Assembly (NCBI GenBank): GCA_964592195.1
Contig: CAZQEI010000006.1
Span: 1 to 61,202 of the forward strand
Direction of reading: 5' to 3'
Length of the DNA: 61,202 nt
From: an uncultured Gammaproteobacteria bacterium
Lineage (GTDB): Bacteria; Patescibacteriota; Patescibacteriia; UBA11705
Below the pieces are notes generated by a model that saw nothing but the letters and a program-made list of their open reading frames with translations, was not told the DNA's origin and made no database searches. The translations under genes were made by a program, and so were the position numbers. Positions 2,613 to 44,443 of this stretch are shown piece by piece; position 1 is the stretch's first letter, and each line of letters opens with the position of its first letter.

Positions 2613-3215
2613 TTAAGCTTCTCTCCGGCCTTTAATTGCGTTAGCCAAGGTAACTTCGTCTGCATATTCAATATCACTCCCCATTGGTAAACCTTTGGCT
2701 AGACGAGTGATTTTAACGTTGGTTGGAAGTAATAGCTTTTTTAGATATAACATAGTCGCTTCACCTTGCATGTCTGGGTTAAGAGCTAAAATTACTTCAG
2801 TAATATTATTTTGTTGAATTCTTTCTATCAACTTTCTAACATTCAAATGTTGTTCAGTCACACCATCAATAGGATTGATAGTTCCGCCTAGCACATGGTA
2901 AACGCCATGATACTCGTTAGTTTCTTCTAAAACATTTAGATCGTGAATTTCTTCCACCACGCAGATTTGCTTTTGATCACGACTGGAATTGCGACAAATA
3001 GGGCATAGGCCTTCTTGTTCAGTTAAATTGTGACATTGAGAACAAGTGTGCGTATTGTTTTGTAATTCAGTTAAACTTTGAATAAAACTGGTAATCTCTG
3101 ATTTGGGTTGTTTAATTAAATAAAAAACAAAACGCTCCGCGGTTTTGCGACCAATGCCGGGGAGCTTGGCGAAATCTTCAATTAAATTGTTTAACTGAGA
3201 AGGAAAGCGGGCCAT
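2613..3215 (-). CDS. recR: Recombination protein RecR
   Basis: HhH motif LPGIGRKTAERF, C4 zinc finger CSQC...CPIC, Toprim-like core. ATG 3215 lies 4 nt after the ybaB stop. Confidence 0.92.
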   Translation of the reverse strand: MARFPSQLNNLIEDFAKLPGIGRKTAERFVFYLIKQPKSEITSFIQSLTELQNNTHTCSQCHNLTEQEGLCPICRNSSRDQKQICVVEEIHDLNVLEETNEYHGVYHVLGGTINPIDGVTEQHLNVRKLIERIQQNNITEVILALNPDMQGEATMLYLKKLLLPTNVKITRLAKGLPMGSDIEYADEVTLANAIKGRREA

Positions 3216-3606: not shown

Positions 3607-4998
3607 TTAATATTCAGTTCCGGAGCCGGCGTAGTTACTATATTTTTTATCCAAATTCTTATACGAAGCTTGCGCGCCTTCGAAGTATAGGCGAATAATG
3701 CCAGTCGGACCATTACGATGTTTGGCGATGTGAATTTCAGCAATAGATTTATCTTCCGGTGTTAATTCTTCAATATTATAATTACGATCCATGGCTTTAC
3801 GGTAAATAAACATTACGATATCCGCATCTTGTTCGATTGATCCAGATTCTCTCAAGTGGGAAAGTTTCGGAATAGCTGGTTTACTCATTTCCACAGCGCG
3901 AGATAACTGGGATAGGGCTAAGACTGGAACATCCAGTTCACGAGCAATTTGTTTTAACGCTCGGGTAATTTCAGCCACGGCTTGCACGCGATTTTCTGCA
4001 TTGGCGCGTGATTCCATTAACTGCAAATAGTCGATGATAATTAAACCTAAACCATGTTCCATCTTCAATCTACGTGCTTTTGTTCTGATATCAATAACGC
4101 TGGCGGCTGCGGAATCATCGATGTAAATAGGGGCTTCGGACAAAACACCCATGCCATGACCCAGTTTGGGGAAATCATCATCTTCTTCACGAGAAGAAAG
4201 TTTACCAGTTCGGATTTTCCATAAATCAATGTTCGCTTCCGCGCACAGCATACGATCAACCAACTGTTCCTTTGACATTTCCAAACTGAAATAACCAACT
4301 GGAACCTTGGCCTTTACCGCAACTTGACGGGCAATGTCCAACGCCAATGAAGTTTTCCCCATGGATGGGCGAGCGGCGAGGATGATTAAATCAGATTTCT
4401 GTAAACCGGCCAGATGATCATCAAGATCGGTAAATCCAGTTGGTACACCGCGAAGCTGACCAGCATTGCGATGTAGATCATCAATACGATCAAAGGCGTC
4501 ATTCAATACATTTTTTATAGAAACGAAAGTTTTTTTATTATTTTGTTCTGATACTTGAAACAAAGCTTGTTCGGCCTGATCAATGACCGTGTCGATTTCT
4601 TCCTCTTCTTTGTAACCTAAAGTGGAAATTTTATTTGCCGCATCAATCAATCTTCTTAATGTGGCTTTTTTTACAATAATGTTGGCATAGTTAACTGCAT
4701 TACCGGAAGTTGCCACTTGATTGGTTAATTCCACTAAGTATGTTCGTCCACCAACAGATTCTAATAACTTTTTTTCTTCTAATATGTTTGTTAATGTCAG
4801 TAAATCAATTGGTTCATGAGTGGCATAAAGCTGGATCATGCAATCAAAAATAGTGGCATGGCTGGTGCGGTAGAAGTCGTCTTTGGTAATTAAATCAGCG
4901 ATTTTAAAGAAGACTTCGCTGTCAATTAAAACCGAACCCAGCAAAGATTGCTCAGCTTCGAGATTTTGAGGAGGAATTTTGGAAAAACTGTCTGACAT
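3607..4998 (-). CDS. dnaB: Replicative DNA helicase DnaB
   Basis: N-terminal PPQNLEAEQSLLGSVL, Walker A GARPSMGKTS, and a RecA-like C-terminal domain. Confidence 0.95.
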   Translation of the reverse strand: MSDSFSKIPPQNLEAEQSLLGSVLIDSEVFFKIADLITKDDFYRTSHATIFDCMIQLYATHEPIDLLTLTNILEEKKLLESVGGRTYLVELTNQVATSGNAVNYANIIVKKATLRRLIDAANKISTLGYKEEEEIDTVIDQAEQALFQVSEQNNKKTFVSIKNVLNDAFDRIDDLHRNAGQLRGVPTGFTDLDDHLAGLQKSDLIILAARPSMGKTSLALDIARQVAVKAKVPVGYFSLEMSKEQLVDRMLCAEANIDLWKIRTGKLSSREEDDDFPKLGHGMGVLSEAPIYIDDSAAASVIDIRTKARRLKMEHGLGLIIIDYLQLMESRANAENRVQAVAEITRALKQIARELDVPVLALSQLSRAVEMSKPAIPKLSHLRESGSIEQDADIVMFIYRKAMDRNYNIEELTPEDKSIAEIHIAKHRNGPTGIIRLYFEGAQASYKNLDKKYSNYAGSGTEY

Positions 4999-5101
4999 AG
5001 TGATTACATTTTAGCTTATTAGTAGGGAAGTAACAAGTTGATATTGTGTGAACAGATTAATTGTAGGCGCACAAGCTTTGGTGCGCATATATTACCCCCT
5101 A

Positions 5102-5129
5102 TTGACAAATCTATTTAATGTGATATAAT
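5102..5129 (+). promoter_or_regulatory. Consensus extended -10 promoter of the sRNA
   Basis: TTGACA (5102-5107), 16-nt spacer ending TGa, TATAAT (5124-5129). Confidence 0.75.
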
Positions 5130-5135
5130 ATATGC

Positions 5136-5354
5136 GCACGCTCGGAGTCCTACGGTGGCCAGCAGAGACGTGTACTGCGTCAAACCTGGTAACAACCAGA
5201 GGGCGGCCGAGCCCGGTACCGCGCCGGAACCAAAGCGGAACGATTCCCTACTTCCCTACACGGAGGTGCGCGCAATGACTCGGAGCCGCGACAGTCCCAA
5301 CAATTCATTCTGAACGTGAGGCCCTGCCTATCTAGGTGGGGTCGTCTTTTTTTT
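5136..5354 (+). ncRNA. Unclassified GC-rich structured small RNA (~220 nt)
   Basis: Begins ~7 nt after the -10 box. It is GC-rich, has no ORF, and its 5' GCGCAC pairs with GTGCGC ~130 nt downstream. It ends in a hairpin (~5319-5343) plus a T8 run. Confidence 0.6.
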
Positions 5355-5371
5355 ATCTAAAATTAGACAAT

Positions 5372-5475
5372 TAGTAAGTTGGTAACTAGTATAGTAGTAA
5401 CGTGGTACAAGGTATTAATCATTTTAAATTAAATTTCATTGTACCAATTTACTCTTTTACCAATTACTAATGTAC
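5372..5475. repeat. Family B repeat pair (TAGTAAGTTGGTAA...GTGGTACA) in inverted orientation
   Basis: 5372-5412 is 36/41 identical to 51873-51913. 5437-5475 is the inverted partner. Further copies lie at 21871-21912 and 11600-11660. Confidence 0.75.
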
Positions 5476-5486
5476 TCATGCAGCTA

Positions 5487-5515
5487 TTGACAAATTTATT
5501 ATTCTATGCTATAAT
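5487..5515 (+). promoter_or_regulatory. Consensus extended -10 promoter of the large RNA
   Basis: TTGACA (5487-5492), 17-nt spacer ending TGc, TATAAT (5510-5515). The -35 context ATTGACAAAT matches the sRNA promoter. Confidence 0.75.
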
Positions 5516-5521
5516 ACTAAG

Positions 5522-7035
5522 TTGTCGTTTGACAATTTACACATAGATTTTTAAGAGATATAGGCGTCTAAGACTGAAAACCAGATCTAACGACCACCAA
5601 CCGAGTGTGTGGTGGCTGAAAGGAGGTTTGACATGGATTGGACGTGATTAAAGGAACGCAGAAACAATCCCGGGACAGGGCCAAGTGTCCAGTCTGAGTC
5701 ATTTCGCGTAAGCTCCGCCCATAGTTGTGCCCGTCAGGGTATGCAAGCGGAGGGTATCGGGATTTGATTCAGTTGATACGAGACGAACCAGTAGGAGACT
5801 CGGACCTCTACCAAACTCGTGTGAGGGCGGGGAGGAAAGAGGCCCTCCGGTGATATGGCCTGCTTCGGGTCTGAGACCAACCCGGTCAACCCGACGCGAT
5901 GTTTAACAGTCCCCTTCAGAATGGAGGCCTTCGATGCTATTCATTCATCGGCTTCTCAACTCGCGCAGGCGTGAGCGCTAAAATTCGGTGACAGCGCGGT
6001 AAAATAGTCACCAAAGGGTTTTAATCAGGGCCTCTGATTAAAACGATCTAGCGGGTTATGTAGTAGCCGTGGCTCCCGCTAGAGTTCGAGTAACATGGAG
6101 CTAGCCACACCGCGTGTTTTCAGAAAAGGAGGATGGCGATAATGCGCTACATTCGCGACGGCCCGTAGTTCACTACTGGAGCACGTGGATGCACAGCTCA
6201 GGATGTCTGCCCCGCCCGCAACTGCACACGCAGTCCCGCACTACATCGCGTGGGCTGTCGTCGGCGAAGCGGCCGGGTACACGCGCTCATCATCGACTGA
6301 TGCTCCCTACTTGGTTTCGCTGTCTTGTGTGTGACAGGCCCAAGTGAGCCGACGACCATCGGCATCGGGGAGTAAATAGGAGGCGCTATGCCGCGTGATC
6401 CCCCGTAATCAACAACTGACCCTGGGGATGTTCCCGCACAGAGAATGCTTTCTTCCGTTCTGTAACTAGCCCCGGCCGCAAAAGAAGCGGTTCACATCGG
6501 CCAGCGACAAGGCACGATGACGGGTCAGCACCAAGCCATGAGGCGAAGGAGTTTTCCATGTATGACTGGTGGTAAAGAGCCTTTCATCCACTTCAGGCAG
6601 AACAATGGAAAGTGGACAAGGGCCTGACAGGATTGAAGATCTCAGTCCGAGGCGATCCGTATGTTTTGATGCGGAGTTAACAAGGGTCATGAATCGTGCC
6701 GAGGTGCGAAGTTCATGACGATCAGATCTGCCACACGCCGATAACGACATTGGCTTGGTAGACTGAGTTCCTAAACTCTGGTGGGCGTAAGGTATCCTCC
6801 GACTGGTGTCGGTTGTGAATGCTTATTGCCACGCAAACAGCCTTCTGGAGGTTCAATGATTAGAGCACCCCCGAGTCGCGAGCCTTGCAGGCTCACATCG
6901 GATCAGGCGAGTAGCTGAGTCGCATGCGCCAATCGAGATCGTCAACGACGATTCTCGCCGCTTTCAAGCGGATGTCGCGCGTCGCGTTAGGCGAAAGTCT
7001 CGAGAACATGAGACGGACTAACCTCCGTCTCTTAA
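5522..7035 (+). ncRNA. Candidate giant structured non-coding RNA (~1.5 kb), class unknown
   Basis: Runs from promoter to terminator with no credible ORF. Sampled lines give 52-67 % GC in an AT-rich genome. Perfect helices include 6018-6028/6034-6044, 6047-6055/6075-6083 and 6686-6693/6712-6719. Confidence 0.6.
7010..7031 (+). terminator. Terminal hairpin of the large RNA
   Basis: GAGACGGA/TCCGTCTC 8-bp stem, loop CTAACC, with only a weak T tract after it. Confidence 0.5.
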
Positions 7036-7063
7036 ATTTGGAAAAATTTTATTGAAAAATAAA

Positions 7064-7088
7064 AGAGGCTATTATGCCTCTGTTTTTT
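7064..7088. terminator. Bidirectional rho-independent terminator
   Basis: AGAGGC/GCCTCT stem flanked by an A-run and GTTTTTT. It serves the + strand RNA unit and the minus-strand HAD gene. Confidence 0.7.
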
Positions 7089-7089
7089 A

Positions 7090-7899
7090 TTAAAATCCGA
7101 TCAATGTCCTCTCTATATTATCATTGTAGTGGATCCAGTTAATCTTCCCAGTTTCAGTCAATTGATATACCATAAATTGGTCATTTTGGAATTCAGTAAT
7201 TATTCCATTACGTTCGGTGACAATTCTCCAGTCATGTTTATTTGCTTGTTTTAACAATTGAAAATCAGGGTTAATGCAAATTGCCAATCCACCCAAATTA
7301 TGAACTCGCAATAGCATGGGGAAATCACCCATACTGTCACCACACGCCCAAATTTTTGTGTCTTTATCAGTATTAATAGTCTTTAAATGGCTATCAACGA
7401 GACAAGTCTTTGTTTCAGGTTTGATCGTTTCGCCTCGGCCAGTGATTAAACCATCAGCATTTACAAGCATTGAAGATCCGTATGAATGTTTAACGCCATG
7501 TTTTAACGTAAACATTTTAATGGCTTCTTGAGGTGAATTACTGATAGCACAAATATGCCACTTTTCATGTCGTAATTTAAAAGCAATTAAATGATTCGTA
7601 TAACGAAGTACATGTTTGTAGCGTTGGAGAATAACTTTTTTTATTAAACTAACATATTGAGTATATTCAACACCTTGAATGTAGGTAGCTAATAAAGCAT
7701 TTAATTTTTTTGCATGTATGTAGAATAAATCATCTTGATTGCGAAAAGCAGTTTGTGCTTCATTTAGATGGGGAAGAAATATTCCTGGTAAAATATGTTG
7801 TTTGACTAGTTCTTCTTGAATGTCTAAAAATAGATTACCCTGGTGCCACGTACCATCAATGTCAGTAAATATTATCCCAGGACATTTTGTCGTTTTCAT
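7090..7899 (-). CDS. HAD-superfamily phosphatase (subfamily IB-like)
   Basis: Motif I FTDIDGTW (DxDGT) and C-terminal GDSMGD motif. Confidence 0.65.
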   Translation of the reverse strand: MKTTKCPGIIFTDIDGTWHQGNLFLDIQEELVKQHILPGIFLPHLNEAQTAFRNQDDLFYIHAKKLNALLATYIQGVEYTQYVSLIKKVILQRYKHVLRYTNHLIAFKLRHEKWHICAISNSPQEAIKMFTLKHGVKHSYGSSMLVNADGLITGRGETIKPETKTCLVDSHLKTINTDKDTKIWACGDSMGDFPMLLRVHNLGGLAICINPDFQLLKQANKHDWRIVTERNGIITEFQNDQFMVYQLTETGKINWIHYNDNIERTLIGF

Positions 7900-8006
7900 G
7901 TGGAGTGCCTTTGGTTGTTAATGGACAGCCTTTAGATTTTTATCAATAAACAATAATTGTGTCAATAAAAAAGAACGCTTATACCACGTTCTTCTTTGTA
8001 TATAAT

Positions 8007-8858
8007 TCATTGTTTGGAGCAGAGGTCAACGGTATTCTTCAAGAGATACGCAATGGTCATGGGGCCAACGCCACCCGGGACAGGAGAAACAAAGCTGGCT
8101 TTTAAAATAACATTATCAAAATCAATGTCGCCTGTTGTTTTACCATTTACCGAGTTAATCCCTACATCAATCACAATGCCATCTTCTTTGATAAAAGTAT
8201 TATCAATGAAGTTTGCTTTACCTACTGCCACAATTAAAATATCAGCTTCGTGACAGACAGTTTTGAATTCAGGCGTTTGTAAGGTGACACTGGTAACTGT
8301 GTTCGTTTTACCATAGAAAGACTGGAACGGTTCAGCAAAAAGGGGATTATTGGACAAGACTACAATATTCTTGTTTTTTAATTCAACTTGAGTTTCTTCT
8401 ATTAATCTATTTATTCCAAGGACTAATGGAGAAATGATTGTTGACTTGCCATCTTTTAAGTTTTGTAAGTTAACTTTGTGAAAACCATCAACATCTTTCT
8501 TCGGATCAATGGCGCTAATTATTTCATCTTCGTTAAATTGCTTTGGTAATGGTAATTGAACTAAAATTGCATGAGTGGCTTCATCTTGATTTAAGAATTG
8601 AATGGCTTCTAAAACTTCTGCTTGTGTAGCGTTAACTGGGAATTTATATAAATGCATTTCAATACCAACATCAAAACAAGCTTTCTTTTTCAAGTTGACA
8701 TATAAATGAGAAGCAGGGTCTTCTCCTACTAAAATAATGGCTAATCCTGGGGTTAACTTTTCATCTACAATTTTTTTTCTAACATCAATCTTGATCGCGT
8801 CAGCCAAAGCGCGACCATCAATAATGTGACCGTTTAATTTTGGACCTATGATTTCCAT
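8007..8858 (-). CDS. folD: Bifunctional methylene-THF dehydrogenase / methenyl-THF cyclohydrolase FolD
   Basis: GEDPASHLYVNLKKKAC, VQLPLP and DVDGFH motifs. The start overlaps the end of glyA. Confidence 0.93.
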   Translation of the reverse strand: MEIIGPKLNGHIIDGRALADAIKIDVRKKIVDEKLTPGLAIILVGEDPASHLYVNLKKKACFDVGIEMHLYKFPVNATQAEVLEAIQFLNQDEATHAILVQLPLPKQFNEDEIISAIDPKKDVDGFHKVNLQNLKDGKSTIISPLVLGINRLIEETQVELKNKNIVVLSNNPLFAEPFQSFYGKTNTVTSVTLQTPEFKTVCHEADILIVAVGKANFIDNTFIKEDGIVIDVGINSVNGKTTGDIDFDNVILKASFVSPVPGGVGPMTIAYLLKNTVDLCSKQ

Positions 8859-10093
8859 AATTCGTCGTACAAGGGAAATTTGGCGGCGAGAGCCTTGACC
8901 TCATTTCGAATGTTACTAATTAATTCAGTATTTTGAAAGTTGCAAATCACTTGATCAATCCAGTTTGCGATTTGTTCCATTTCCGGTTCTTTCATGCCTC
9001 TCGTTGTTAACGCTGGTGTGCCTAAACGAATACCAGATGGATCCATCGGACCGCGCGGATCATCAGGGATAGCGTTCTTGTTAACTGTAATACCAGCTAG
9101 GTCAAGCGCAGTTTGTGCCTGTTTACCGGTAATGCTTTTGTTGGATAAATTGAGTAATAATAAATGATTATCAGTTTGATTGAAGCAAATATTATAACCT
9201 TTGGATTTGAATACTTGTTCCAAAGTTTTAGCGTTTTTCAAAATTTGTGCGCAATAAGTTTGAAATTCCGGTTGTAATGCCTCCTTGAACGCTACAGCTT
9301 TGGCAGCAATATTGTTTTCATGTGGACCACCTTGTAAACCGGGGAAAACTGCCTTATCAATAGCCTTGGCATATTTTTCTTTGCACATAATCATTGCGCC
9401 TCTTGGTCCGCGCAATGTTTTATGAGTTGTTGTTGTCACCACGTCGAAGATTGGAACAGGATTTTCTAATTGTTTACCTGCAATTAACCCGGCAATGTGC
9501 GCAATGTCTGCCATGGTAATAGCGCCAACTTCGTCAGCGATTTCTTTGAACTTTTTATAATCTAATAGACGTGAATAGGCAGAAAAGCCGGCTAAAATCA
9601 TTTTTGGTTTATGTTCGAGCGCCATTTGTCGTAAATTATCAAAGTCAATTAAACCATTGGCATCAGTTTTATAACGCACGAAGTTAAAAATCTTTGACAT
9701 GTGAGTAACTGGATGGCCATGCGTTAAATGTCCGCCATGTCCCAGGTCCATGCCAAGAATGGTATCGCCGGGATTTAATAAACCAAAATAAACAGCTATA
9801 TTGGCTGGTGCACCAGATAATGGCTGTACGTTGACATGTTCGGCGTTGAATAATTGCTTGGCTCGTTCAATTGCCAATTTTTCCACTTCGTCAATATATT
9901 CATTTCCACCATAATAACGATTGCCAGGATAACCTTCAGAGTATTTATTAGTTAAAACCGAACCTAAGGCCTCAAGCACAGCCGGTGAAACAAAGTTTTC
10001 TGATGGAATCATTTCCAATCCTTCTCGTTGTCTTTGTAATTCTTGATGAATAAAGCCAGCGACTTCTGGATCTTGTTGTTTTAAATTTTGCAT
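8846..10093 (-). CDS. glyA: Serine hydroxymethyltransferase
   Basis: SENFVSPAVLEALGS, YPGNRYYGG and the PLP-lysine motif TTTTHKTLRGPRG. Confidence 0.97.
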   Translation of the reverse strand: MQNLKQQDPEVAGFIHQELQRQREGLEMIPSENFVSPAVLEALGSVLTNKYSEGYPGNRYYGGNEYIDEVEKLAIERAKQLFNAEHVNVQPLSGAPANIAVYFGLLNPGDTILGMDLGHGGHLTHGHPVTHMSKIFNFVRYKTDANGLIDFDNLRQMALEHKPKMILAGFSAYSRLLDYKKFKEIADEVGAITMADIAHIAGLIAGKQLENPVPIFDVVTTTTHKTLRGPRGAMIMCKEKYAKAIDKAVFPGLQGGPHENNIAAKAVAFKEALQPEFQTYCAQILKNAKTLEQVFKSKGYNICFNQTDNHLLLLNLSNKSITGKQAQTALDLAGITVNKNAIPDDPRGPMDPSGIRLGTPALTTRGMKEPEMEQIANWIDQVICNFQNTELISNIRNEVKALAAKFPLYDELWKS

Positions 10094-13700: not shown

Positions 13701-13806
13701 GCTATTACTGATATACGGATATGTTACTGATATTACGGATAATCACGGATAAAATTACAAGTTAAGATTAATTTGTAATATTCGTAAATATTTGTAATTT
13801 GTAACC
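13701..13806. repeat. Word-repeat spacer (TACGGATA / TTGTAAT words)
   Basis: TACTGATATACGGATATGTTACTGATATTACGGATAATCACGGATAAAATTACAAG...TTTGTAATATTCGTAAATATTTGTAATTTGTAAC. Confidence 0.55.
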
Positions 13807-44227: not shown

Positions 44228-44327
44228 ATTGACCACAAATCCACGAATTACCACGAACCCACAAATTCATTGAGGATAAAGAGATAAAGGTGATGGTTTT
44301 TATTTTTTAAAGGATAATTCCATCTTT

Positions 44328-44364
44328 TCCGTCTGAGGCGGATCCGCCTTTGGCGGAAGAATTT
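44328..44364. repeat. GC-rich double-hairpin repeat (family E), copy 3
   Basis: TTCCGTCTGAGGCGGATCCGCCTTTGGCGGAAGAATT. Confidence 0.8.
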
Positions 44365-44416
44365 GGTGCTTACCCCGAAGGGGCCCCTTTGGGGGAATTT
44401 AGAATTTTTAATTTAG

Positions 44417-44434
44417 CCTGCCTGCGCAGGCAGG
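44417..44434. repeat. Perfect 18-bp palindrome CCTGCCTGCGCAGGCAGG, copy 2
   Basis: Identical to 11621-11638. Confidence 0.85.
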
Positions 44435-44443
44435 TGCTTTAAC

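Follow-up and report, generated by a model that had tools for sequence, protein, structure and literature searches.

Among described systems, the RAPP-like arrest peptides stand closest to the locus reported here. Two studies describe how the motifs RAPP and RGPP, and likewise the SecM-type IRAGP, bring the ribosome to a halt at the peptidyl-transferase centre (PTC) with Pro-tRNA in the A site; according to the same studies, arrest by RAPP and RGPP is robust and refractory to EF-P, the motifs are depleted from proteomes, and arrest motifs are found near the C-terminus of small open reading frames (ORFs) which control downstream genes (PMC10951233, PMC12992588). An independent emergence of such peptides in many lineages is proposed in parts of this literature (PMC10987492, PMC12992588, PMC10951233). 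The locus in question lies within a 61,202-nucleotide stretch of DNA from an uncultured bacterium (GenBank assembly GCA_964592195.1, contig CAZQEI010000006.1, forward strand), referred to below as the window. It consists of a GC-rich promoter-to-terminator unit at 5487-7088, termed unit B, and a shorter sister, unit A, both of which carry very small ORFs (mini-ORFs) behind Shine-Dalgarno (SD) sequences. The reading favoured here, with a probability of roughly one half, is that of a long stable transcript whose selected elements would be ribosome-loading, arrest-type mini-ORFs.

As in the units, RAPP-like peptides (SecM RAGP, ApdA/ApdP RAPP, ApcA RAPG, RQH family RGPP, RDGP) are encoded by small ORFs with a strong SD, bear R-[A/G/D]-[P/G]-P in their C-terminal part, often at the stop, and conserve the motif alone while the remaining peptide and the nucleotides drift. 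However, known members usually comprise tens of residues up to more than 100 and frequently include a signal or transmembrane segment, whereas the peptides here have 6-20 residues, and those with 6-8 residues have the motif beginning at residue 3-5. In the known cases, the RAPP-like ORF immediately precedes a regulated gene of the same orientation (secA, secDF, yidC, TonB receptors and others), and no such gene is present here. Instead, several candidate arrest ORFs are found in series on one long GC-rich RNA, and arrest, unlike that of the known members, is a prediction from sequence. Unit B lacks two defining features of the RAPP-type family, namely the co-oriented regulated gene and a tunnel-filling nascent chain.

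Very short nascent chains are able to arrest the ribosome at the PTC in the ErmCL/ErmDL, cat and cmlA leaders and in TnaC, where the ribosome, once stalled, goes on to remodel the structure of the mRNA or to block Rho. The drug-dependent leaders and TnaC need a small-molecule co-inducer and control a resistance or catabolic gene, whereas the locus described here offers neither a downstream gene nor a hint of a ligand. The bar minigenes of phage lambda act via the translation apparatus (peptidyl-tRNA drop-off, tRNA sequestration) and not through a protein product. Like the mini-ORFs of the units, they consist of a few codons behind an SD on a non-coding transcript, and a two-codon MK-stop minigene is found in one relative (L172). 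However, the bar minigenes have 2 codons, are without arrest motifs, exert their effect in pth-defective hosts and form no 1.5-kb GC-rich array. In the literature, no paper was found on large non-coding RNAs in bacteria of the Candidate Phyla Radiation (CPR), nor on a MIRAPP peptide.

Mini-ORFs of the folD-dnaB gap

On the basis of DnaB, the host was placed as a Falkowbacteria-like Patescibacterium (CPR), the closest DnaB among 5.8 billion proteins being 82 % identical. The gene order glyA-folD-[gap]-dnaB-ybaB-recR is conserved in relatives, and in most of those sampled the folD-dnaB gap holds 1-5 promoter-to-terminator units in the same orientation, consisting of a perfect extended -10 promoter that is directed away from dnaB, a body free of ORFs and a terminator. 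Perfect extended -10 promoters number 18 in 2.4 Mb of related loci, of which 13 are at this gap. Across species the units range from 0.39 to 1.75 kb in length. The relatives compared are given below, with identities referring to DnaB.

L162, 82 % identical: gap body of about 1.75 kb
L166, 76 % identical: gap body of 0.95 kb
L168, 76 % identical: gap body of 0.63 kb
L002/L165/L170, 78 % identical: gap body of 0.39 kb
L172, 74 % identical: two gap units
L082/L173, 72 % identical: five tandem gap units, one encoding a 66-aa protein
L171, 74 % identical: no gap unit

Mini-ORFs in the units are 4-20 codons long. Those identified behind an SD in the window are as follows, with coordinates that run from the SD to the stop codon.

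5262-5313, plus strand: unit A mini-ORF MTRSRDSPNNSF-stop (5275-5313), containing R-D-S-P; SD GGAGG, 8 nt before the ATG
5622-5647, plus strand: mini-ORF MDWT-stop (5633-5647); SD AAAGGAGG, 6 nt before the ATG
5923-5981, plus strand: mini-ORF MLFIHRLLNSRRRER-stop (5934-5981); SD GGAGG, 6 nt before the ATG
6128-6168, plus strand: mini-ORF MRYIRDGP-stop (6142-6168); SD AAAAGGAGG, 9 nt before the ATG; RDGP belongs to the set of PMC10987492 and the stop is right after Pro
6379-6408, plus strand: mini-ORF MPRDPP-stop (6388-6408), ending D-P-P-stop and outside the a-priori motif set; SD TAGGAGG, 4 nt before the ATG
6548-6575, plus strand: mini-ORF MYDWW-stop (6558-6575); SD AAGGAG before the ATG; an overlapping ATG at 6562 opens a 21-aa ORF
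6847-6918, plus strand: mini-ORF MIRAPPSREPCRLTSDQASS-stop (6856-6918), starting M-I-R-A-P-P; SD TGGAGG, 4 nt before the ATG

Arrest motifs were taken from a published list (RAPP, RGPP, RAGP, RAPG, HAPP, QAPP, TGPP, RDGP and others; Fujiwara et al., PMC10987492) and their background rate was measured in the other frames and strands, allowing for GC-driven Arg, Pro, Gly and Ala codons. Eight matches were found in the sense direction of the units compared with one in antisense, and six of the eight are located at or beside the stop of mini-ORFs that begin with a start codon, an SD being scored for five of these. In the related loci as a whole (2.4 Mb), SD-led mini-ORFs with a listed motif number 18, and 12 of them belong to folD-dnaB gap units. 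The unit peptides share with RAPP-like members the combination of a small ORF and an R-[A/G]-P-P or RDGP-type motif near the C-terminus.

The start-anchored sequence M-I-R-[A/G]-P-P was found to occur five times in 2.46 Mb (both strands), and all five occurrences are in gap units, on the sense strand and after a GGAGG SD (window 6856, L002, L165, L170 and L172). It is present as MIRGPP-stop in L002 and L165, as MIRAPP-stop in L170 and as MIRAPPVH-stop in L172, with motif mini-ORFs of other relatives ending in ARGPP-stop, ARPPPL-stop and PRDGPNVLM-stop. Over four lineages its codons vary (AGA/CGC for Arg, ATT/ATC for Ile, GCA/GCT/GGT at the fourth position, CCC/CCG for Pro), and between MIRGPP-TAA of L002 and MIRAPP-TAG of L170 the changes are GGT to GCA, CCG to CCC and TAA to TAG. 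These same two relatives differ at 44 % of the third positions of dnaB. The synonymous codon turnover points to the peptide, not the RNA, as the target of selection.

As an independent test, L172 was retrieved once the hypothesis had been formed, and was found to encode MIRAPPVH-stop, MRIRDSPS-stop, MIRIRDRP-stop and MRIRDQTY-stop behind two perfect promoters of the folD-dnaB gap. Since the body of its gap unit has a G+C content of 40 %, and so is not GC-rich, the mini-ORFs, not GC-richness, appear to be the common denominator of the units.

A similar picture was obtained from the SD sequences themselves. In an unbiased k-mer scan over six pooled units, GGAGG was the top-enriched pentamer (21 occurrences vs 7.6 expected, z = 4.9). 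An ATG follows at 4-9 nt in five of seven cases in unit B (P = 3e-4) and in 12 of 28 when seven units are pooled (P = 2e-6), compared with one of eight in antisense. Six of the 14 GGAGG-N4-9-ATG sites in the window lie in the 1.9 kb that units A and B occupy. The coupling of SD and ATG in the gap units is non-random. For the long ORFs of the window, an SD-like motif was present within 20 nt of the first ATG in ~10 of 45 (about 22 %, with crude start calls); most have AU-rich upstream regions, and the strong SDs of units A and B stand out. Since conservation and selection are seen on SD-led mini-ORFs that contain RAPP-like motifs, the gap RNA is probably engaged by ribosomes rather than acting as a purely non-coding ornate fold.

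Unit B as a transcription unit

The features of unit B other than its mini-ORFs are as follows.

5487-5515, plus strand: promoter TTGACA-17-TGcTATAAT, a motif match of 12/12 plus TG
5516-7063, plus strand: transcript body, 52-60 % GC, without coding periodicity or a long ORF
6018-6083, plus strand: two neighbouring perfect hairpins, of 11 bp (6018-6028/6034-6044) and 9 bp (6047-6055/6075-6083)
6686-6719, plus strand: perfect 8-bp hairpin (6686-6693/6712-6719)
7010-7031, plus strand: GC-rich 8-bp hairpin (7010-7017/7024-7031) with a weak T tail, closing the GC-rich block
7064-7088, scoring on both strands: bidirectional intrinsic terminator (7064-7081 and T-run), common to the convergent HAD gene

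An earlier note on this DNA had described a GC-rich promoter-to-terminator unit without coding signal, and the description was upheld. The extended -10 promoter is one of two perfect TTGACA-N16-18-TATAAT sites in the 61-kb window (5487-5515 and 5102-5129) where 0.06 are expected, and the sequence CTATTGACAAAT(C/T)TATT is common to the promoters of units A and B. The G+C content is 0.52-0.60 over about 5550-7050 compared with 0.29-0.46 in the flanks (300-nt windows), the block of ~1.5 kb ending, as had been observed, at the 7010-7031 hairpin with the bidirectional terminator behind it. The helices pointed out at 6018-6044, 6047-6083, 6686-6719 and 7010-7031 were all found to be perfect, and just two ORFs of at least 60 aa are present, on opposite strands as noted before (6114-6347, plus, 77 aa; 6466-6750, minus, 94 aa).

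A hidden coding sequence or pseudogene was ruled out by four lines of analysis. Stop codons number 15-30 per ~515 codons in each of the six frames, which is the random expectation for this composition. No 3-base periodicity was detected in unit B by Fourier analysis, while dnaB, the HAD gene and folD are strongly periodic. A Pfam search of all stop-to-stop fragments gave no match, and none of the ORFs of the units was present in a collection of 15 billion proteins. A replication origin was also rejected, as the cumulative GC skew climbs on both sides and the flanking genes are all on one strand. Comparison of 5100-7090 with plasmid, phage and Escherichia coli genome collections (blastn) gave no match. 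Unit B is a discrete promoter-to-terminator unit without coding signal.

An abrupt change in composition of this kind would also be expected of an assembly chimera, or of GC-rich DNA contaminating a CPR contig. An assembly contig from Logan (SRR12261225, L001) is 100 % identical to the window over 6721-8243 and crosses the 3' junction, which is thus no product of a single assembler; the composition change coincides with a promoter and terminator of host type, and the assemblies of ten relatives have the same architecture at the same syntenic site. The independent contig and the shared architecture make a chimera very unlikely, to the point of being negligible.

Folding and nucleotide conservation

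The earlier note had interpreted unit B as a giant structured RNA of no known class. The second part of this interpretation stands: Rfam 15 gave 0 matches over the whole window at the gathering threshold and only junk over 4900-7300 in E-value mode (nothing better than E = 3). The families covered include rRNA, RNase P, tmRNA, 6S, SRP, group I and II introns, OLE, GOLLD, ROOL, raiA and HEARO. The units of relatives also gave no match in Rfam, where control loci gave tRNAs, so the search works, and no tRNA or transfer-messenger RNA was found with ARAGORN. The first part would make unit B a large non-coding RNA of the OLE, GOLLD or ROOL kind, with its function in the fold and with SDs and mini-ORFs that are incidental. 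Such an RNA would fit a GC-rich body in an AT-rich genome and the lack of coding signal. It would also fit the excess of perfect hairpins of at least 8 bp (four in unit B vs 0.56 expected, with 0/200 dinucleotide shuffles reaching four) and the mean fold z-scores, which are about -1.2 in unit B and -1.5 to -1.7 in the units of relatives but about 0 in the dnaB and glyA mRNAs. However, the z-scores are equally negative on both strands. A proposed pseudoknot between GTGGCT (6069-6074) and AGCCAC (6103-6108) is present as far as its two sequences go, but this 6-nt complement is without statistical or comparative support.

Comparison between species was found to be less favourable to a functional fold. 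Unit B, when searched against 170 related loci by nhmmer, blastn and Smith-Waterman, matched only the identical Logan fragment, and when gap units were compared all against all loci (nhmmer, blastn) the matches were limited to self and near-identical strains. Smith-Waterman scores between the units of different species are at shuffle level, no 8-10-mers are shared and there is no common nucleotide motif. Positional counterparts at 72-82 % DnaB identity cannot be aligned and have a four-fold spread in length. The conservation in related genomes on which the claim of a giant structured RNA would depend is therefore absent between species, while what remains of it is better folding than shuffles, to some degree, and a lack of coding signal.

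Only L002/L165/L170 form an alignable lineage. Identity between their bodies is about 80-97 %, compared with a difference of 44 % at dnaB third positions, and a body so much better conserved than these synonymous sites indicates purifying selection over short time scales, as a structured RNA would also predict. Covariation in this lineage is thin, about 14 pairs being broken while five are compensatory, of which three belong to the terminator and two do not. A function in the fold also leaves unexplained the L172 unit, which is not GC-rich, the SD-ATG coupling and the conservation of MIR[A/G]PP peptides, and is considered unlikely. The gap units carry local structure, and no evidence for a conserved ornate architecture was found.

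OLE, GOLLD and ROOL resemble unit B in a length of several hundred nt or more, in GC enrichment relative to the genome and in the absence of an ORF. Unlike unit B, which matches none of them and whose counterparts are unalignable, they have a strongly conserved sequence, covarying structure and Rfam models. CsrB/RsmZ are closer in their mode of evolution, being fast-diverging, highly expressed RNAs of variable length whose conservation is confined to a short, repeated motif containing GGA; the difference is that GGAGG is here tied to ATG at SD spacing. No CsrA was detected by tblastn with E. coli and Bacillus subtilis queries in the window or in the 2.4 Mb of related loci, by which the genomes are partly covered.

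Unit A and the spacer

Directly upstream of unit B is unit A (5102-5352), which has the same design and was absent from the earlier note, as were the SD-ATG mini-ORFs of both units.

5081-5139, no strand assigned: perfect 14-bp inverted repeat GTGCGCATATATTA / TAATATATGCGCAC (5081-5094 / 5126-5139) around the unit A promoter, 100 % complementary
5102-5129, plus strand: unit A promoter TTGACA-16-TATAAT with TG, pointing away from dnaB
5133-5352, plus strand: GC-rich (55-60 %) transcript of ~220 nt with an intrinsic terminator at 5320-5343 and T-run
5370-5479, no strand assigned: spacer separating units A and B, AT-rich and containing imperfect inverted repeats that are nested and composed of TTGGTA(A/C) / TACCAA motifs

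A 27-nt stretch of the unit A promoter is 96 % identical to the gap promoter of L166, and units A and B have their promoter and terminator flanks in common. The fold z-score of unit A is -1.07 and no Rfam match was obtained for it. Pairing between the two units was considered and rejected, since the four complementary stretches of 14-20 nt are not collinear and are at about chance level. The 31-nt loop of the inverted repeat encloses the unit A promoter, the whole being located in the 104-nt space shared with the divergent dnaB start, and the repeat is possibly an operator or cruciform. The spacer precedes the unit B promoter and has the appearance of a site for protein binding.

Gene content of the gap

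The genes flanking the units are all on the minus strand, with recR, ybaB and dnaB (3607-4998) on one side and a HAD-family hydrolase gene (7090-7899), folD and glyA on the other; the HAD gene is convergent to unit B. The HAD gene does not occur in this gap in any of the relatives examined, and the protein it encodes is the sole member of its cluster. As it is found in the gap of the window only, the gap evidently also gains and loses genes.

This raises the question of whether the gap is a hypervariable island, a hotspot at which promoter-cargo-terminator cassettes turn over, with unit B as orphan cargo without a shared function. The cargo could be small-protein genes, small RNAs or foreign GC-rich DNA. 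The number of units varies from none in L171 to five in L082/L173 and their content is unrelated between species; the flanks common to units A and B, the repeats bordering the L162 unit (below) and the HAD gene specific to the window would fit as well. Some cassettes code for small proteins, such as the 66-aa protein of L082 and another at L082 13535. Against this, no plasmid, phage or E. coli match was obtained and no integrase or transposase lies beside the island in the window, foreign coding DNA would keep a frame signal where none is seen, and random cargo leaves the same hexapeptide ORF in four lineages unexplained. An island of unrelated cargo is regarded as unlikely as a full account, and cassette turnover can coexist with the favoured reading of ribosome-loading mini-ORFs.

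Several of the relatives' gaps have features of their own. In L082 the five tandem units are upstream of dnaB at 7460-9991 (likewise in L173) and have similar promoter-upstream segments; the cassette of the 66-aa protein in L082/L173 has a strong SD, and an extra GC-rich cassette with two small ORFs is present at about 12950-13535 of L082. The 1.75-kb unit of L162 is situated between 36-nt direct repeats (94 % identical), a GC-rich palindromic element beginning CTGCCGGAGCCAAAGGCTCT, at gap-orientation coordinates 98-133 and 2082-2117. Inside it is a 58-nt repeat covering two mini-ORFs, both ending in VAAD-stop, plus a hairpin. L171, which is without a gap unit, has a gene of the bAvd / 23S_rRNA_IVP family inserted between dnaB and ybaB (2676-3047). 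Proteins of the bAvd type serve diversity-generating retroelements as accessory proteins.

Units at the gap agree between species in position, orientation and promoter quality but not in the body, and this is what would be expected if the act of transcription itself were functional at the DNA level, with a strong promoter setting supercoiling or insulating dnaB from folD-glyA and a transcript whose sequence is largely irrelevant if it is structured enough to escape Rho. The concentration of perfect extended -10 promoters at this gap (13 of 18, as above) and an excess of G over C in most bodies are in keeping with such a role. However, it does not explain the purifying selection on the L002-family body, the conservation of mini-ORF motifs, the tandem units with their own terminators or the lack of any unit in L171, and is judged distinctly improbable. 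A functional fold, cassette turnover and a DNA-level role each cover part of the data, and none of them covers the peptide-level conservation.

Related sequences elsewhere

A scan of viral contigs for an SD followed by MIR[A/G]PP gave seven matches, which is within a rough chance estimate for the size of the database, and was discarded as uninformative. One of the seven encodes Ser (MISGPP) and three are antisense to a conserved membrane-protein gene. SD-led ORFs among these contigs are MIRGPPYSI-stop, MIRAPPNYRPKRTTPSAAGDSTT-stop and one beginning MIRAPPS that is in frame with a longer ORF; the coordinates are L180 734-775, L179 (oriented) 6463-6545 and L177 6597-6680. In L180 and L177 the MIR[A/G]PP-type ORF is just upstream of phage genes. 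In L056, a distant Patescibacterium (DnaB 62 %), an SD-led MAIARAGPAVVYPKNGH-stop with the SecM-type RAGP is found at about 1019 (minus strand), in an ORF-poor region upstream of, and divergent from, dnaB.

Elsewhere in the window, the intergenic space between a radical-SAM gene and a FecR-like gene contains, at 13733-13752 (minus strand), the direct repeat TTATCCGT-GA-TTATCCGT, which is similar to a DnaA box and is a chance match of I-R-D-x-P-stop. A cluster of GC-rich palindromes (e.g., GCCTGCCTGCGCAGGCAGG) is located at 44320-44440, downstream of an HD-domain gene, and in L056 a similar CCTGCCTGCCGGCAGGCAGG hairpin interrupts a tRNA-like sequence at about 330-380. These palindromes may represent a family of repetitive extragenic palindrome (REP)-like elements in CPR genomes.

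Proposed action of the units

In the favoured reading, units A and B would give rise to highly transcribed, stable GC-rich RNAs without a conventional protein but with an array of strong ribosome-binding sites. Several mini-ORFs spell I-R-A-P-P, I-R-D-G-P-stop or R-D-P-P-stop, RAPP-like sequences of the family by which ribosomes are stalled at the PTC in SecM, ApdA and ApdP. Ribosomes would load at the strong SDs and then pause or arrest on the RAPP-like motifs, and the structured RNA around them could depend on the parked ribosomes for its fate or folding. Three variants can be envisaged, in which a helix would be opened as in SecM-secA or the erm leaders, an untranslated RNA would be shielded from termination (Rho) and decay (RNases), or an abundant RNA would titrate ribosomes. 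For the L002 family, a pairing is predicted between the Pro-Pro codons and the region around the start of a mini-ORF further downstream; one of its pairs has undergone a compensatory change from G-C to C-G, and this arrangement might be SecM-secA logic in miniature.

A number of observations weigh against arrest-type mini-ORFs as the selected elements. There is no co-oriented gene downstream of unit B, the terminator being followed by the convergent HAD, folD and glyA genes, and the same is true of relatives. The established RAPP-type arrest peptides are far longer, and arrest by them is modulated by the N-terminal context. The mini-ORFs are also unevenly distributed, as L082 is without any a-priori motif, the SD of the L168 mini-ORF is weak and the SD and start of one mini-ORF are deleted in L170, so that individual mini-ORFs turn over. 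Broad SD-like sites are not enriched over dinucleotide shuffles in most units (the result being marginal), and the strict GGAGG count and the GGAGG-ATG coupling are the only significant SD signals. GC-rich sequence in itself favours Arg, Pro, Gly and Ala codons, and the motif class was picked after the peptides had been seen, the motif list being external and the L172 test later. Finally, unit B has no alignable homologue in searchable data, and every functional step has been deduced from sequence alone.

A more specific proposal is that Falkowbacteria-type CPR bacteria, which seldom place SDs before their ordinary genes, maintain at a fixed chromosomal site one or more very highly expressed long RNAs that park ribosomes on arrays of minimal (5-8 codon) RAPP-type ORFs. 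It would amount to a ribosome-parking or translation-status-sensing RNA without a downstream gene, for which a five-residue chain would have to be enough for RAP-P arrest, and is put forward tentatively, as possible but doubtful. Stalling on five-residue chains combined with a parking role that serves no gene would, if confirmed, be considerably more novel than a variant of the RAPP type.

If stalling is true, this would be the first case joining bare-motif RAPP-type arrest units, in series, on an RNA that regulates no downstream gene, and the mini-ORFs would provide a natural minimal substrate for studies of arrest at the PTC. Where a GC-rich intergenic region without ORFs has been taken for a structured-RNA candidate, its conservation can stem from very small translated ORFs, which escape nucleotide alignment and covariance searches. 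For the poorly understood, genome-reduced CPR bacteria, stalling of this kind would mean a translation-control or ribosome-storage device.

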